DNA of 64,000 nucleotides from Octopus vulgaris (Eukaryota): positions 30,194,001 through 30,258,000 of the forward strand of contig OX597835.1 of NCBI GenBank assembly GCA_951406725.2, written 5' to 3'. The notes under the pieces were generated by a model that did no database searches, was not told where the DNA came from, and saw only the letters and a list, made by a program, of their open reading frames with translations. The first letter of the stretch is position 1; the number at the start of each line of letters is the position of its first letter. The position numbers and the translations under genes are program-made. Below, one piece after another: positions 3,682 through 61,460 of the stretch.

Positions 3682-3683
<2 letters not shown>

Positions 3684-3928
3684 ATCATATTTCGGCCAGA
3701 TTTCATTCGTCACACTCCTGTGACCGCATCAGTGGTCCCTTGCTTTCTTCTTTCTTATTTGTGTGTCTCTCCTTACTAACCGTCAGCCATCTTGTATTTC
3801 ACTTTGTATTTGTAATACAAAATGGCTGACGGTTAGTAAGGAGAGACACAAATAAGAAAGAAGAAAGCAAAGGACCACCGATGCGGCCACAGGAGTGTAA
3901 CGAAAGAACTCTGGCCGAAATAAGATTA
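3682..3928. mobile_element. Fold-back inverted repeat (~115-bp arms) with a degenerate hammerhead-like motif in each arm
   Basis: Arms 3682-3798 and 3814-3928 are imperfect reverse complements; outward-reading C(T/C)GATGC-GG(T/C)CA...TGGCC-GAAA, but stem I partner not found. Confidence 0.6.
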
Positions 3929-11656: not shown

Positions 11657-11732
<76 letters not shown>

Positions 11733-11953
11733 ATCAATTTAGGGTAGCAAAAAATTCAATAGAAATTTATCGCTACCAGCGGTCTAGTGGGAAAGAGAAA
11801 ATAGTCAAAGACTATATATATAAATTCAACAACAATTAAGGAATGGCCTTAATAGGCCATTCGGCCCACTAGAAGAGGCAGCCAGGACTCAAACCGCTAA
11901 GTAGTAGTAATTCAGAAATTAAATGAAAATTTAAAAACATTTACCCTAATTCA

Positions 11954-12052
11954 TCTTTAGACGATGCATCGTTTCGGTGTTTTTTATGGCAAACCAGCTT
12001 AATTAAATTAAATTAAGTCAATCTACCAAAGGTTACACCTCATCGGTAAAGA
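11954..12052 (-). ncRNA. Type-I hammerhead ribozyme motif (CCGAUGA core variant)
   Basis: Minus strand: TCTTTA-CCGATGA-GGTGT..ACACC-GAAA-CGATGCATCG-TC-TAAAGA; stem I is a perfect 6 bp and stem III lies in the palindrome ACGATGCATCGT. Confidence 0.75.
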
Positions 12053-12228
12053 AACCAGGAGAGACGGATATACACAATTGATGATTTTCTGACTAATTCT
12101 GAGATTGAATCAGCAGTTTATATTTACTGCTGATAAGTTGGCGCGAATACGATGGTTTTGAAAATTTTAGGGCAGATATTCCGAGGGCATTGATACAGAT
12201 GTCTCGTGTATATCCGTCTCTCCTGGTT

Positions 12229-12327
12229 TTTTTACCGATGAGGTGTAACCTTTGGTAGATTGACTTAATTTAATTTAATTAAGCTGGTTTGCCATAAAAA
12301 ACACCGAAACGATGCATCGTCTAAAGA
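12229..12327 (+). ncRNA. Type-I hammerhead ribozyme motif (CCGAUGA core variant)
   Basis: TTTTTA-CCGATGA(12235-41)-GGTGT..ACACC-GAAA(12306-09)-CGATGCATC-GTC(12319-21)-TAAAGA. Confidence 0.75.
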
Positions 12328-12452
12328 TGAATTAGGGTAAATGTTTTTAAATTTTCATTTAATTTCTGAATTACTACTACTTAGCGGTTTGAGTCCTGGC
12401 TGCCTCCTCTAGTGGGCCGAATGGCCTATTAAGGCCATTCCTTAATTGTTGT

Positions 12453-12497
<45 letters not shown>

Positions 12498-19683: not shown

Positions 19684-20215
19684 TTGAGTAGTTGCATGAA
19701 TTATCTTGTTATGGATAATTCGGTTAATTCCACAAACACAATCACGCACACTCATACACACACACAAACACACACATTAATGCCGTTATATACAGTCACA
19801 CACACAGACACTCACTTACAAAAGAAAATTCACCATTCATTTGAACTGCACCCTTTCACCTTCCTATTCTTATGCCTCTCTTCTCCTACTTCGTTTGAAC
19901 TCTTGAACCTTTAGAACCTTCTAGATTCTTCTACATCCAACCATTTTGACGTCACTCCTTATAAAGGAATTTTTTAAAGAGACACTCATTTTCACTATGG
20001 GCTCCGTGTGAGCAGTCATCTAATAGTTTTTTGTGCATCTTGGTGTTGACATAAGTTCCTTGCTTTTCCTGATAAGAAAGCGGCATAATGTACTCCTTAT
20101 TCCTTCGCCATTATGAATATGCAGCCTTCGAAACATATGTCGAAAATAAAGGAATTTTGTTAATTCGTCGTTCAACTCCATTCTTTCATATATTTATATA
20201 TATATATAGAGAGAG

Positions 20216-28477: not shown

Positions 28478-29513
28478 GAAAGGGGAACTCGATTACATCT
28501 ACACCAGTGTCCAACTGGTACTTATTGTATCGACTCCGAAGTAGGAAAGCTAATTTGACATCGATGGAATTTGAAATTAGAACCTAAAGACGAACGAAAT
28601 ACCGTTAGAACGTTTTACCAGGCATGCTAACGATTCTGACATCTCACCGTATTACTATATTCTTATATATATATATATATATATATTCTTTCTACTATTG
28701 ACACAAGGTCTGAAATTTGGATGGGGGTGGTTAAGTCAATTACATCAACCCCATTATGCAACTGGTACTTAATTTATCGATCCCCGAAAGGATGAAAAGC
28801 AAAGGCAACCTCGGCGGAACTTGAACTCAGAACTTAGCAACAGGAGAAATACCTATTTCTTTACTACCCACAACGGGAGAAATACCTATTTCTTTACTAC
28901 CCACAACGGGCTAAACACAGAGAGGACAAACAAGGACAGACAAACGGATTAAGTCGATTATATCGACCCCAGTACGTAACTGGTACTTATTTAATCGACT
29001 CTGAAAGGATGAAAGGCAAAGTCGACCTCGGCGGAATTTGAACTCAGAACGTAAAGACAAACGAAATACCTATTTATTTACTATCCACAAGGGGCTAAAC
29101 ATAGAGCGGACAAACAAGGACAGACATAGGTATTAAGTCTATTACATCGACCCCACTGCGTAACTGGTACTTAATTTATCGACCCCGAAAGGATGAAAGG
29201 CAAAGTCGACCTGGGTAGAATTTGAACTGAGAACATAAAACACAAACGAAATACCGCTAAGCATTTCGCCCGGCGTACTAACGTTTCTGCCAGCTCGGCG
29301 CCTTACTATATTATTTATTCTAGGCACAAGACCCGGAATTTGGGGGAGGGGGGCTGTATTTAGATCGGCTCCAGCACGCAACTGGTACTTAATTTATCGA
29401 CACCGAAAGGAGGAATAGCAAAGTCCAACTCGGCAGAACTCAGAACGGAGCAACGGGAGAGATACTGCTAAGTATTTCACCCAGCGTGCTGACGATTCTG
29501 CCAGCTCGCCGCC
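28478..29513 (-). mobile_element. Cluster of three co-oriented SINE A copies, including a trimer (28686-29302)
   Basis: Heads near 28650, 29302 and 29513; repeated ccgaaaggatgaaaggcaaagtcgacc-like units. Confidence 0.88.
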
Positions 29514-31367: not shown

Positions 31368-31904
31368 CATATAACAGGGATGACCACTACCTGGACATCC
31401 ATACGCTAGAAGTACATCAGCAATGATCATACCACTAAGAAAGGAATGTTCTCAAGAAAATTTTAGCAAACACCAGAACATAAGCGAGCAAGACAGATGA
31501 ACAGAAACAAAATATAGATTAATCCAAAACTAGTTTCGCTATTACCACTTACGTAATTACTTACGTATTTGTCCGTAGCTCGTCAGTGTGATCGTCTATG
31601 CAAATATAATTTGCAGAACAGTACACGAGACGTCCGCATGAGATTGAACATGCGTGCAGATCTACCAATTACACTTGGGGTTATCTTTTTGGCGCGCAAA
31701 AATACCGGAAATAATTCTGGAGAACTTAAATTTCTGCAGTAAATTTTGCCGGTTAGAGAACATAGTTATTTAAATTAAATTTAAAATAATAAGTGTGAAA
31801 AACTGAATATTAATTTGATTAATATCATTTTAAAACCAGTGGTGTAGCATATTAAACCCTGAAGATACAGAAAAATGATATTACATTCATATAAGAGGGA
31901 TGAC

Positions 31905-31909: not shown

Positions 31910-31943
<34 letters not shown>

Positions 31944-32090
31944 AAAAGCAATAAAGATTCAAGTTAATTTAAATGAATTTACTTGAATATGGTACCTAAC
32001 TTAGATGCACCAAAACAAACTATACGGTTTTAACAATACAGTAATGTGGGGTGATTATAAGCGAGAAAGAAGCAACAAGAATGGATAGGT

Positions 32091-32181
32091 TTTTAGTACA
32101 ATCGTTTCATACAAGGACAGGCTTTATTAAAAGTTGCAAAAATTGCAGCATATAAACGTGTCCCGTACTCATCAGCTAAAA
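32091..32181 (-). ncRNA. Type-I hammerhead ribozyme motif
   Basis: Mirror image of 32502-32592. Confidence 0.82.
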
Positions 32182-32501
32182 TACATGTGAGTTCTCTAGA
32201 CATCCTAGTGGTTGAGGCTATACTCATGAAGTAATGTAGATAATTAAGTAACATAAACAGATTTCCAAAGTTCATTAAAGTTCTTTAAAGATGATGTACA
32301 GTCTTATCACAGAATTTTAAAAATGATGTACAGTCTTATCACAGAATTTTAAAACTGATTTTTTAAAATTCTGTGATAAGACTGTACATCATCTTTAAAG
32401 AACTTTAATGAACTTTGGAAATCTGTTTATGTTACTTAATTATCTACATTACTTCATGAGTATAGCCTCAACCACTAGGATGTCTAGAGAACTCACATGT
32501 A

Positions 32502-32592
32502 TTTTAGCTGATGAGTACGGGACACGTTTATATGCTGCAATTTTTGCAACTTTTAATAAAGCCTGTCCTTGTATGAAACGATTGTACTAAAA
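32502..32592 (+). ncRNA. Type-I hammerhead ribozyme motif
   Basis: TTTTAG-CTGATGA(32508-14)-GTACGGGACA..TGTCCTTGTAT-GAAA(32575-78)-CGATT-GTA(32584-86)-CTAAAA; full canonical core. Confidence 0.82.
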
Positions 32593-32789
32593 ACCTATCC
32601 ATTCTTGTTGCTTCTTTCTCGCGTATATATATATATATATATATATATGCTAGACCACTGGTTTCATATGTATGTAATATAATTTTTCTGTATCTTCAGG
32701 GTTTAATATATTAGACCACTGGTTTCAAATTGATATTATTCAAATTAATATTCAATTTTTCACACTTATTATTTTAAATTTAATTTACA

Positions 32790-32837
<48 letters not shown>

Positions 32838-38603: not shown

Positions 38604-38637
<34 letters not shown>

Positions 38638-38662
38638 AAACAAGCAACAAGAATGACTCCGG

Positions 38663-38755
38663 TAATTTGGTACGATCGTTTCGTACTACATCATTTTATT
38701 AAATGCTGTAAGTATTACAACATATTTAAGAAGCTGAGTACTCATCAGCCAATTA
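38663..38755 (-). ncRNA. Type-I hammerhead ribozyme motif in element fragment 38635-38880
   Basis: Minus strand: TAATTGG-CTGATGA-GTACT..AGTAC-GAAA-CGATC-GTA-CCAAATTA; stem III palindrome ACGATCGT. Confidence 0.82.
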
Positions 38756-38898
38756 TAGAGGTTTTCCATCAATACAAAAATTTTCAAATCAAGTGGCAAC
38801 ATTATAGAGAAGGTAGATACACAGAAAAAGATGTGGATTTAAATTTTAAGAACATATGAGGTAGTGAAGTCCTTCCACTGACTGACTAAGATATGGCT

Positions 38899-39001
<103 letters not shown>

Positions 39002-41712: not shown

Positions 41713-42473
41713 TAAGCAATTAAGGGTTTAGCAACGAATTGCCTTACCACACACCGAATTTAGAAATAGCAGTCAAAGAGATTATAGCTATTTCTTCTAC
41801 TAAAAGGGAGATCACAGTAAAGGCACAGCATTTGAAAGGCAAACACAAACAGGCAAGAAAGAATGAATTAACGGCAATCTATCATACAGTTTTAAGTCAC
41901 CTACGGACGTACGTTTCGAGATCAAGTCTTAGGAAAGCGTAAGAATTAGATAACTCTACTTTACCCAGACTTCTTCTTTCATCAGCGCAGGATACAAACA
42001 ATCATGAATGATTGAATATTGAATTTTGAGATACTAGAAGGCACCAACTCAACTCAGTATCAGAGCGAGCTAGAAGCCACAGCTAGTATCACCAAATTCA
42101 AAGTATGAATGAAAGCTTGTGTCACCAGTCCCTTCCCACCCGCGTGTAGCCAAGACAAAGTGCTGTGGTCATTTACTGGGATGAATATGGTTATGAGTAA
42201 ACAATGAAGGGTGAAATTAATTAATTTGGAATAATTATCAATTACACCAAGTAGTCTTCGGCATGTAAAAGCCTCATTCGAGGAAAATTTAAGTAATACT
42301 AAGCAATTAAGGGTTTAGCAACGAATTGCCTTACCACACACCGAATTTAGAAATAGCAGTCAAAGAGATTATAGCTATTTCTTCTACTAAAAGGGAGATC
42401 ACAGTAAAGGCACAGCATTTGAAAGGCAAACACAAACAGGCAAGAAAGAATGAATTAACGGCAATCTATCATA
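41713..42473 (-). mobile_element. Hammerhead-bearing 587-bp unit with 174-bp terminal direct repeat (pseudo-LTR-like) in (TA)n
   Basis: 41713-41886 matches 42300-42473 with no differences seen. Confidence 0.87.
41900..41991 (-). ncRNA. Type-I hammerhead ribozyme motif
   Basis: Minus strand: CCTGCG-CTGATGA-AAGAAGAAGTCT..AGACTTGATCTC-GAAA-CGTAC-GTC-CGTAGG; stem I 6 bp with one G-U, stem III palindrome ACGTACGT; first stem II pair is A-C. Confidence 0.8.
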
Positions 42474-42725: not shown

Positions 42726-43313
42726 ATGGAGTGGCAGGTTAAGGTAGGGGTGGATTATAGTGCCTACAAAGTATAGCAATGTTAGAAACAAGATGGCCAA
42801 TTTGAGTTTTGCTTGCACACTTCTCACTCTTTCTTTCATGAAAAGGACAGAAGGAGAAAGAGGGTGGATGACAATATGATATCAAATAATGGGGGCCAAA
42901 TGAAAGATGAATAAGTTGTCGGAAGGAGAAGAGATGGATAGAATGAGAAGCGAAGAAAATTTGCAAGCAGTGGAGGGTGGAGTTGTTAAGATGGAGTGGC
43001 AGGTTAAGGTAGGGGTGGATTATATGTTTCCATTATTTGATATCATATTGTCATCCACCCTCTTTCTCCTTCTGTCCCTTTCTTGCTTTCTGTCTCTGTC
43101 TCTCTTTCTCTCTGTCTCTCTCTCTCTCTTTCTGTCTATCTCCCTCTCTGTTTCTCTTTCACGCTGTGTCGATTGGCCGTTCAGCTTCTCTCGACCTTAC
43201 ACTGCAACATCGATATTTACATGTACGTAGCGATATCGAATACAGCCATAGAGGTAGATTCATAGACGAATGCGGATAGACATGGAGAGACAGACAGACA
43301 GACAGACAGACAT

Positions 43314-43372
<59 letters not shown>

Positions 43373-44061
43373 CTTAGGTAGATATATATATATATGTATC
43401 TATATACGTATATATATATGTATATATACATATACGTGTATGTATGTATGTATGTATATAACTATGTGTATATAATGAATTTACAAATATACACTTTTCA
43501 TGAAAGAAAGAGTGAGAAGTGTGCAAGCAAAACTCAAATTGGCCATCTTGTTTCTAACATTGCTATACTTTGTAGGCACTATAATCCACCCCTACCTTAA
43601 CCTGCCACTCCATCTTAACAACTCCACCCTCCACTGCTTGCAAATTTTCTTCGCTTCTCATTCTATCCATCTCTTCTCCTTCCGACAACTTATTCATCTT
43701 TCATTTGGCCCCCATTATTTGATATCATATTGTCATCCACCCTCTTTCTCCTTCTGTCCCTTTCTTGCTTTCTGAGAGCCTGTGTCACTCTCTGACACCC
43801 TTTCATTGTCTCACTCTGTTTGTCTGTCTGTCTATCTCTGTCTCTGTCTCTCTTTCTCTCTGTCTCTCTCTCTCTCTTTCTGTCTATCTCCCTCTCTGTT
43901 TCTCTTTCACGCTGTGTCGATTGGCCGTTCAGCTTCTCTCGACCTTACACTGCAACATCGATATTTACATGTACGTAGCGATATCGAATACAGCCATAGA
44001 GGTAGATTCATAGACGAATGCGGATAGACATGGAGAGACAGACAGACAGACAGACAGACAT

Positions 44062-44775: not shown

Positions 44776-45515
44776 CATGTGTGTTTCCATATATTATCAT
44801 TATGATCTATTACTATTTAGTAATTATTATATTTACTCTAACTTTAATCTTTCAATATATATATATATATGGATGTACAAAAATATATAAGTACAAAAAT
44901 ATGTAAATGTTTGTGTATATATATATATATATGCATATATATATATTGTTTTATTCTCTTATTTATTCTTAGACGCCAGGACTTAGTCTTTGTGAGCCTA
45001 GTACTTATTCTATCGATCACTTTTGCTGATCCGCTATGTTACGAGGACGTAAACACACTAGAATCGGTCGTCAAGCGGTGTTGGTGGGGGGGGGGGGGAT
45101 AATCACAGATACACAAACAGCTAAACTCACATCCCTACATATACATATATATTGGTATTAATTTCCTGTGAGTAAAATTCTTTATTTAGAAACCAACATC
45201 AAATTTTGAAACTTTACTTAAGCTTTCTCCGTTTAACACAGGTTTCAACTTCGAGAATTATATTAGTGTTTTATTTACACAGAGCTTTTGGATAAATTCA
45301 TCCTTTAACACCCTTATCCCTTCCTAACTGTACCCTCCCGTTAGTAACTTGTAGAACTCCTTAGTCCTTTAATACCTCTTCATCTACGTTCTTTGAGGTC
45401 GAATGATAAATAATTGTGTGCACTTAACATTCTGGTCTTTAAGAATATGAATCTAAAGCATGTTTTCTTATCTCTTCCTTCTTCCTTTTGTTTATACTGT
45501 ATGCACTTGTTTTTC

Positions 45516-45630
45516 ACTGTGATGAAGATCCGTTGCCTTAATTGGAATGCCCTATGAAGATGAAGGATTTTATTCTCGCATTTATGCATAGACTGCCTTC
45601 TGGGAATTTTGGTCAGAAACAGCTGTTAGC
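45516..45630 (+). ncRNA. Degenerate hammerhead motif with long stem II, in element ~45150-45890
   Basis: ACT-GTGATGA-A-GATC..GGTC-A-GAAA-CAGCT-GTT-AGC; homologous to 59540-59653, which keeps CTGATGA. Confidence 0.5.
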
Positions 45631-45887
45631 TTTGTTATGTTATGTCTTGCTTTGTATTAATAAATAAGCATTAAATGTGGTACTATCGATGTACTGGTTA
45701 ATCTATGTTTTTCTCCATTTTCTAATTATTTGCATTGGTTTCTGATAAACCTTTGTTTATCCTATTGTCACCTGCACTCGTCATACATGGTATTCCAGCA
45801 GACCATTTCCCGGGGAGAACACAGGTAACGGATACTGAGAGTACCATACGGATATTTTATCCCTTAGTTGGTTACTACAGCTGTTAA

Positions 45888-59400: not shown

Positions 59401-59448
<48 letters not shown>

Positions 59449-59539
59449 TTAGAAAAATGGACAAAAGCATAGATCAACCAGCACACCGATTGAACCATAT
59501 TTAAAACTTGTTTATTGATATAAAGTGATACATAACGGA

Positions 59540-59653
59540 ACTAACAGCTGTTTCTGATCAGATTCCCAGAATGCAGTCTATACATAAATGCGAAAATAAA
59601 ATTCTTCACCTTCATAAGGCATTCGAATTGAGGCAACCGTTCTTCATCAGAGT
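59540..59653 (-). ncRNA. Hammerhead motif with long stem II, in element ~59447-59915
   Basis: Minus strand: ACT-CTGATGA-A-GAAC..GATC-A-GAAA-CAGCT-GTT-AGT; stem III palindrome AACAGCTGTT; stem I only 3 bp. Confidence 0.6.
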
Positions 59654-59976
59654 GAATAAAGAACATACAAATATAGTAAAGATTATTTGGCAACATAACA
59701 TGGTAGTCCTGGTTTAGGACGAATGTTGCTGTAATTCAGCCCAAGAAGACTTCGTCTCCGGCTGGCTATACGACACATTCGGTGACGTTACATTTTCGAA
59801 CAAGGGAAATTTCTAAAAGCATACAATATAAACAAAAGAAAGAAGCAAGAGGTAAGAAAACATCGTTTAGACAAATAGTCTAAAAGCCGAATATGTTATG
59901 TGCACATAGCAATAATATATAATGTATGGATATATATATATATATACATTACTACTACTTAGTAGTAGCAGTAGTT

Positions 59977-60133: not shown

Positions 60134-61460
60134 CCCTAATGCAGTACCAGGCAGTGGCTCTCATGGCTTCTGATCTTAACTGATTGGAAATGTTATCATA
60201 TACATTGTTTTATCTTGGTATAAAAGATGGGCTACACCAAATATTCTGCTCAATACCACAGATATGCTCGTCAGTTGCTTGACCTTAACCAGCTGAGCAT
60301 ATCCCTTAATGGCTGACAATATGTGCATTTCTGAAGGGTAGTGGGGTAGCATCATAGCCATGTGTTGAGAAAAATTCTATGGGGTTTGTATAATTCACAT
60401 CTGGAAACATGGGTGTTTTGTTCAACATCCTTAAACAATCCTTATTCAGGGACCTTTTGAGTCGGATGGGCTACTCGACATAAAGAAAATTCTAACTGGA
60501 CCCCACCTATTTTTTTACTGCCCACAAGGGGCTATAGACAGAGAGGACAAACAAGGACAGACAAACAGATTAAGTCGATTACATCGACCCTTAGTGCGTA
60601 ACTGGTACTTATTTAATCGTCCCTGAAAAGATGAAAGGCAAAGTCAACCTCGGCGGAATTTGAACTCACAACGTAGCGGCAGACGAATTACCTATTTCTT
60701 TACTGCCCACAATGGGCTAAACACAGAGAGGACAAACAAAGACAGACAAACGGATTAAGTCGATTACATCAACTCCAGTGCGTAACTGGTACTAATTTAA
60801 TCGACCCCGAAAGGATGAAAGGCAAAGTCTACTTCGGCGAAATTTGAACTCACAACGTAGCGGCAGACGAATTACCTATTTCTTTACTGCCCACAATGGG
60901 CTAAACACAGAGAGGACAAACAAAGACAGACAAACGGATTAAGTCGATTACATCAACTCCAGTGCGTAACTGGTACTAATTTAATCGACCCCGAAAGGAT
61001 GAAAGGCAAAGTCTACTTCGGCGGAATTTGAACTCACAACGTAGCGGCAGACGAATTACCTATTTCTTTACTGCCCACAATGGGCTAAACACAGAGAGGA
61101 CAAACAAAGACAGACAAACGGATTAAGTCGATTACATCAACTCCAGTGCGTAACTGGTACTAATTTAATCGACCCCGAAAGGATGAAAGGCAAAGTCTAC
61201 TTCGGCGGAATTTGAACTCACAACGTAGCGGCAGACGAAATACCGCTAAGCATTTGGCCCGGCGTGCTAACGTTTCGGCCAGCTCGCCGCCCTAACTGGA
61301 CCCCACCTGCAAGGTGATTCACCGTTTAACTTGATATGAGATCACTCTGTCGCGCATATATTGTAGTGATTCATGTGTCTACCCTTATCAGGGGTGTAGT
61401 CATGATGGAAATACTGGGCTTCGTATATTTTACCCCAGTTTCACTTTGTCAGCATGCACT
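60134..61460 (-). mobile_element. (TAA)n-embedded non-autonomous repeat, copy 2, interrupted by a SINE A tetramer
   Basis: (TAA)n on both sides; colinear with 4281-4778. Confidence 0.82.
60505..61291 (-). mobile_element. SINE family A tetramer (one head plus four 184-185-bp units) with 17-bp TSD
   Basis: Units start 60505, 60690, 60874, 61058; ctaactggaccccacct at 60492-60508 and 61292-61308. Confidence 0.93.

Follow-up and report, generated by a model that had tools for sequence, protein, structure and literature searches.

In the stretch of Octopus vulgaris DNA analysed here (64 kb, hereafter the window), a strict descriptor of the type I hammerhead finds five sites, all of them (5/5) with a palindromic helix III. 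Block-wise dinucleotide shuffles (n = 100) contained on average 0.02 strict sites and never a palindromic one (0/100), which indicates that these motifs are not chance occurrences. A relaxed descriptor returned 11 rows in the window, whereas shuffles averaged 0.61 (maximum 4). Three of the rows, at 50.7-50.8 kb, correspond to a GAT repeat and were dropped as spurious. The eight sites left fall into six sequence groups, or into five if the copies at 32.5 and 38.7 kb are merged (Table 1).

Table 1. Hammerhead motifs and associated repeats in the window (cleavage sites are predicted)
Feature	Positions	Strand	Remarks
Type I hammerhead, 38.7 kb	38,667-38,752	minus	C3 at 38,748; cleavage after A 38,671
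Stem I of the 38.7-kb hammerhead	5' strand 38,752-38,749; 3' strand 38,670-38,667	minus	4 bp
Core of the 38.7-kb hammerhead	38,748-38,742; GAAA 38,682-38,679	minus	
Helix II of the 38.7-kb hammerhead	38,741-38,683	minus	59 nt
Helix III of the 38.7-kb hammerhead	38,679-38,672	minus	palindromic
Related type I hammerhead, 32.5 kb	32,502-32,592	plus	C3 at 32,508; core 32,508-32,514; cleavage after A 32,586
Mirror copy, identical to the 32.5-kb hammerhead	32,091-32,181	minus	in the left arm of the inverted repeat
14-mer common to the 32-kb copies and the 38.7-kb copy	32,600-32,613; 38,642-38,655	plus; minus	
5'-truncated end piece of the high-copy repeat	38,636-38,899	minus	(TA)n at 3' end, (TAA)n array at 5' end
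Inverted repeat, head to head, 32 kb	32,056-32,323 / 32,360-32,627 (whole 32,056-32,627)		268 nt; 32-nt duplication at the turn
One-sided 3' tail of the left arm	31,942-32,060	minus	~115 nt before its own (TA)n
Hammerhead, 12 kb	12,229-12,327	plus	U4C core; 64-nt helix II; 12-nt palindromic helix III; mirror copy 11,954-12,052, minus
Inverted repeat, 12 kb	11,730-12,468		arms of 263 nt, 98% identical; one-sided tail; (TA)n flanks
Hammerhead, 42 kb	41,900-41,991	minus	61-nt helix II; A10.1.C11.1 mismatch; inside partial tandem 41,730-42,473
Degenerate hammerhead, 31.5 kb	31,522-31,592	minus	broken stem I; 42-nt helix II; palindromic helix III
Degenerate hammerhead, 20.07 kb	20,063-20,147	plus	G8 changed; 5-bp stem I; 54-nt helix II; palindromic helix III

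The motifs at 32.5 and 38.7 kb are real and related, and can be regarded as homologous type I hammerhead ribozymes for which self-cleavage is predicted. Both present the core CUGANGA, the GAAA and the NUH triplet (GUA), surrounded by three helices with helix I open, stem I having 6 bp at 32.5 kb. The 38.7-kb copy keeps all core bases intact, a G10.1-C11.1 closing pair and a perfect palindrome as helix III, whereas at 32.5 kb a helix II of 60 nt is closed by a G.U pair and the palindrome includes one G.U pair; within the high-copy family of the 38.7-kb copy described below, U11.1 accounts for 27-31% of the depth. In folding calculations, helix II closes without constraint in both copies, and helix III behaves as an intermolecular duplex, giving no fold within one motif (0 kcal/mol) and -10.0 (38.7 kb) or -5.8 (32.5 kb) between two copies. 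Whole motifs folded unconstrained show no three-way junction, as expected for single motifs whose helix III needs a partner. The two copies also have in common CTGATGAGTAC and GTA(C/T)GAAACGAT(C/T)GTAC, together with a 14-mer that at 38.7 kb starts ~16 nt beyond the cleavage site. The original prediction had proposed these two motifs, their common downstream sequences and a stem I swap from TTAG/CTAA to TTGG/CCAA (A-U to G-C), and all three are found in the DNA, the 38.7-kb motif on the minus strand and the common sequences as core flanks plus the 14-mer. Its inventory of only two motifs was incomplete, as the one at 32.5 kb is also an arm of an inverted repeat carrying a mirror motif.

Across the 64-kb window, Rfam at gathering threshold gave no match to any family, and a scan by E-value of the interval 31.5-42.5 kb gave 203 matches, with no hammerhead among the 150 matches listed. 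Hammerhead_1 (RF00163) is the sole family matching 38,640-38,800, where it covers the whole model with 19.6 bits (E 0.016). This falls short of its gathering score (34), since 51 nt occupy a place for which the model expects 6. The motif patterns, when searched in viral and metagenome contigs, gave no match. The occurrence of eight sites in 64 kb, none of them above the Rfam threshold, matters for ribozyme censuses and repeat annotation.

A structure-blind alignment of the two copies gives 73% over 90 nt (E 6e-7), with differences at 29 of the 76 columns outside the core. Their stem II inserts (~60 nt), each folded alone and unconstrained, adopt the same rod, which closes at 10.1-11.1, carries a bulged U after five pairs, keeps the same register and ends in the same distal hairpin. 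The pairs of each copy's own unconstrained fold were mapped onto the alignment. Among the 28 pairs of the 32.5-kb fold, the other copy shows 16 unchanged, 2 kept after a change on one side, 5 kept after changes on both sides and 5 broken, and the corresponding figures for the 20 pairs of the 38.7-kb fold are 12, 1, 5 and 2. Of the five double changes, one is the stem I swap, three lie in successive pairs around the bulge and one lies in the distal hairpin. Neutral scatter of the differences would break 12.1 and 8.8 pairs, respectively, against the 5 and 2 observed (P 0.0016 and 0.0007), and would produce 1.6 and 1.2 double changes against 5 (P 0.010 and 0.0026). Under a stricter null in which the changing columns are fixed, the double changes reach P 0.036 and the kept pairs P 0.033/0.058; over the nulls, the P value of the double changes ranges from 0.003 to 0.036.

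The compensatory pattern could also be the result of chance together with the choice of structure, in which case the sequence would simply be inherited, with no selected fold beyond the core. Neutral scatter yields one or more double changes that preserve a pair in 83% of the runs for the pairs of the 32.5-kb fold and in 73% for those of the 38.7-kb fold, so the stem I swap is weak evidence of selection. Moreover, a two-row shuffle of the pairs is not significant (56/500), two rows having little power, and the stability of the single inserts compared to shuffles is marginal (z -1.9 and -1.84; 52 and 50 of 1,000). However, the five double changes are recovered both ways, from the unconstrained fold of either copy, and fall to 0-1 when the partners are slid by 1-3 columns. 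The variants of the family agree with the fold, and the inserts of unrelated lineages are also rods (z -4.6 and -2.9). An origin by chance seems, on these data, improbable. An alignment of four lineages was discarded, its cores being misaligned. Selection on the fold appears to be supported by moderate, consistent evidence, and this part of the original prediction stands, although through the five double changes and the family variants and not through the stem I pair that it had singled out; its description of the stem II inserts as largely divergent is contradicted by their common fold, their alignment and the four further double changes.

The second source of evidence is the population of elements to which the 38.7-kb copy belongs. 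Part of this stretch is contained in 20 of the 24 runs listed, which correspond to four organism codes, and in four runs searched at 80% likeness the matching contigs were 1,364, 949, 838 and 2; the 838-1,364 contigs in each of three runs indicate a high-copy repeat. None of the runs listed as containing the stretch is recorded as RNA, and two contigs of one run guessed to be RNA cover it, which was not taken as evidence of expression. Family variants (unphased, depth-weighted, filtered at 80% identity) with a share of 2% or more make up 39 rows, and the 23 of them within 38,660-38,757 were classified against the structure of the 38.7-kb copy itself. No variant falls in the 13 core positions (0/23; null 2.96, P 0.04), and the 23 divide into 8 that keep a pair, 3 rescued by a variant of the partner, 6 that break a pair and 6 at unpaired positions, the kept and rescued ones amounting to 11/23 (null 4.7, P 0.0025). 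In three pairs, both sides vary in a Watson-Crick-compatible manner (null 0.73, P 0.023), namely 10.2/11.2, 10.3/11.3 and the palindrome pair 38,677/38,674, and the shares on the two sides are nearly equal (0.07/0.07, 0.26/0.28 and 0.07/0.09, respectively). In one contig (record 26), the 10.3/11.3 change seems to be present on both sides, accompanied by a U.U at 10.1/11.1. Five of the kept variants form G.U pairs on the minus strand, that of the hammerhead, which points to RNA. Around GAAA and helix III there are three CG dinucleotides, each varying only at the tolerated base; the partner base, in the core or in the pair 15.2-16.2, shows no variant row at 2% or more.

Not all of the family data point in the same direction. 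The variants in the core plus those that break pairs are not significantly few (P 0.098), pair 4 of stem I is broken in 10-54% of the family depth, and the variant at 38,720, counted as kept, would mismatch the partner that is the majority in the family. The stem I swap is a difference between families only, since at its pair (38,750/38,669) the family contigs have no variant with a share of 2% or more. The copies of the window could themselves be active ribozymes, domesticated in an intronic or regulatory role and maintained by host selection, as the intact core, closing pair and palindrome of the 38.7-kb copy might suggest. However, this copy departs from 77-100% of the family depth at six places (38,706, 38,723, 38,732, 38,770, 38,820 and 38,826), like a sequence drifting after insertion, and its motif is a lone one of the dimer type, whereas the pair at 32 kb would form, according to folding, one long duplex burying the motif if read through. 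Domestication is therefore regarded as highly unlikely. The window copies are probably not active, that at 38.7 kb because it stands alone, is 5'-truncated and lies off the family majority at those six places.

The ends of the pieces offer hints about the elements from which they derive. At 38.7 kb, the piece runs into (TA)n 35 nt beyond its cleavage site, at the point homologous to that of the right arm at 32.5 kb, which ends in (TA)n 36 nt after its own. The family contigs continue past both ends of the 38.7-kb piece and extend at least 198 nt upstream of 38,894, so the unit of the family is longer than the piece. Inverted pairs with tails occur at 32 and 12 kb and a partial tandem at 42 kb, the latter formed by a unit of ~590 nt plus a repeat of 157-175 nt of its end, with (TA)n on both sides and one hammerhead. 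All pieces are truncated (260-740 nt). The 3' ends of the four pieces at 12, 32, 38.7 and 42 kb adjoin (TA)n, which is also very common in this microsatellite-rich window (221 tandem-repeat rows). A pyrimidine-rich stretch and a TTG before the (TA)n are seen by eye at the four ends (12,440-12,468, 41,730-41,745, 32,600-32,622 and 38,636-38,655), a weak resemblance that is possibly a shared priming or protein-binding signal. The 32-kb insertion is also flanked by another, older pair of inverted repeats (31,767-31,892 and 32,666-32,791, 92% over 126 nt), and its target was apparently the (TA)n in the middle of a different palindromic element.

The arms at 32 kb are 99.6% identical over 268 nt, as would be expected if the inverted repeat were a fold-back artefact of the assembly, and neither the mirror motif nor the layout characteristic of Penelope-like retroelements (PLEs) would then be real. 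However, the ends of the two arms differ, and the start of the left tail resembles the sequence of the family contigs beyond 38,642, past the end of the 38.7-kb piece, in independent runs (45, 45 and 46 contigs of three runs and 1 of the fourth). Moreover, the 12-kb region (11.8-12.5 kb) contains a second such structure, with arms 98% identical, and an artefact at 32 kb is considered quite improbable.

The layout described for PLEs in PMC8557442 comprises partial tandems, a 5' copy in inverted orientation, a tail on one side only and insertion in (TA)n, which is attributed there to the Neptune, Hydra and Naiad clades, although the tails reported there have 30-40 bp whereas that of the left arm at 32 kb has ~115 nt. 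No reverse transcriptase or GIY-YIG domain was recognised by eye among the 109 stop-to-stop frames of at least 110 aa in the window, most of them repeat-derived, and Pfam matched none (0/12) of the frames upstream of four motifs. Because an ORF for a reverse transcriptase or endonuclease was not found in the window, the assignment to PLEs rests on the layout and the type of motif. An ORF starting at the ATG of the core, as reported for a Poseidon element of the anole, was also considered and rejected, as the frame stops within 22 codons in both copies. The motifs at 32.5 and 38.7 kb are, very probably, type I hammerheads that belong to the 3' pseudo-LTR ends of (TA)n-inserting PLEs from two diverged families, either autonomous or not, whose fold was selected in the source elements and whose present copies are truncated leftovers.

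Hammerheads with a small palindromic helix III were described in PLE pseudo-LTRs by Cervera and De la Pena in 2014 (PMC4209133). As far as the sections available of that work go, its motifs resemble the present ones in their type I topology, short helix I and palindromic helix III suited to dimers, in being found mostly as solo or opposite-strand copies in truncated elements, and in belonging to families said to abound in covariation and compensatory changes. They differ in a helix II of ~6-8 bp, in most cases with one additional base separating positions 9 and 10.1, whereas the octopus motifs have 59-60 nt and G10.1 directly after A9. The hammerheads of the Hydra clade in the excerpts of PMC8557442, including Hydra-1_oBim, are located ~100 nt from the 3' end, with a preference for (TA)n and a palindromic helix III, and many of them show a U.U at the base of helix II that fits the minor variant of the 38.7-kb family. 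However, their loops 2 are short (3-10 nt), and the motif listed for Hydra-1_oBim is another sequence. The 14-mer and the helix III strings are absent from the supplement of PMC8557442 in an exact-string search, in which line breaks of the text could hide a match. The Naiad PLEs of the same source, with their "HHR_half_core", also combine (TA)n targeting with inverted and tandem ends, and their core halves lie 35-50 nt apart in eight families, a likeness to the long helix II; longer spacers are also reported in two spike-moss elements. The same source reports that Naiads have no canonical hammerheads, and the motif of 32.5/38.7 kb is absent from the 3' ends given there for two octopus Naiads.

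A related explanation, which overlaps the Penelope-like one in origin and differs from it in autonomy, is that the family would be a non-coding retrozyme or SINE-like element, whose RNA would be cut to monomers, circularised and copied in trans by a PLE enzyme, without an ORF of its own. No ORF is seen upstream of the motifs, the 42-kb lineage consists of a unit plus a repeat of its end, and a 2026 preprint (10.64898/2026.07.22.740005) derives animal retrozymes from PLE pseudo-LTRs. Animal non-LTR retrozymes, as presented in the available sections of PMC7229834, are likewise high-copy non-coding repeats with a type I hammerhead, a mollusc included, and one axolotl class has a U.U at the base of helix II. 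However, they form head-to-tail arrays of units of ~300 nt, and the definition of a retrozyme requires at least two tandem units, whereas the copies of the window are solo or inverted and no head-to-tail pair of motifs occurs in its 64 kb. The extension of the family contigs also indicates a unit longer than the 38.7-kb piece. This alternative is possible, albeit on the unlikely side; the 42-kb partial tandem is a candidate non-autonomous unit.

If the Penelope-like reading is followed, published work on PLEs suggests that two motifs in a tandem transcript of an active element would pair through their palindromic helix III, and that the paired motifs would cut after GUA, thereby processing the RNA of the element. 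Selection on the fold would have acted in the source elements while they were copying themselves, shaping the covariation, and the truncated copies of the window would have inherited its signal and drifted since. It is most likely that such selection acted on active source elements and not on the truncated copies found here. The original prediction that the motifs are functional would most likely hold for active ancestors rather than for these copies, which are 5'-truncated and, in the case of the 32-kb pair, would be locked in a duplex if transcribed through. According to the parts of PMC4209133 available, the motifs of metazoan PLE pseudo-LTRs are inactive as monomers and cut weakly as dimers. 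In one PLE tested in vitro (PMC11167929), the hammerhead cut but insertion did not need cleavage. The present data leave the established chemistry of hammerheads unchanged and add covariation support for hammerheads in a repeat family absent from Rfam annotation.

The occurrence of hammerheads in PLEs had already been published, and what differs here is the extended helix II, whose insert has 42-64 nt at all eight sites of the relaxed scan, which shows that PLE-type motifs can do without a short helix II. Seven of the eight inserts exceed their shuffles in stability (z -1.8 to -4.7), the exception being that of the 20.07-kb site (+0.2), and at each of them the rod is interrupted 3-5 bp from the core. 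The hammerheads at 12 and 42 kb are unrelated in sequence to the 32.5/38.7-kb pair, and the helix II at 12 kb is very stable (z -4.6). The long helix II could be a selected domain, kept or re-invented in at least six lineages, that would offer a surface for tertiary contacts or a binding site for the reverse transcriptase or endonuclease, although this idea must be regarded as doubtful. If it were true, a large class of retroelement hammerheads in an animal group would escape Rfam and descriptors with short loops, and some PLEs reported as lacking hammerheads, such as the Naiads with their half cores, may carry complete ones with a long helix II. No description of the family was found in the literature on octopus or cephalopod hammerheads or Penelope and on molluscan stem II, in a search to which most subscription journals and Repbase/Dfam were external.

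Several other repeats are present in the window. Two of them (45,498-45,726, plus; 59,448-59,669, minus; 81% identical) contain a palindromic helix III after GAAA and, ~90 nt upstream, a core-like heptamer, intact at 59,650 and with C3 changed at 45.5 kb; they fail the relaxed descriptor, and may represent an additional lineage in which helix II is longer still. A 247-nt imperfect palindrome (3,682-3,928, 88%) has no hammerhead match. Tandem units of 184 nt of an abundant dispersed repeat occupy 28,731-29,305 and 60,505-61,294, with further copies at 9.3, 16.3, 23.3, 30.8, 37.4 and 56.5 kb, and we take the repeat at 28.7-29.3 kb to resemble an octopus SINE. Finally, nested near-perfect duplications occur at 42,727-43,024 / 43,494-43,767 and 43,089-43,287 / 43,837-44,035, some of them inverted (119 and 188 nt) and one direct (199 nt, 100%), which are either a recent local rearrangement or an assembly artefact.
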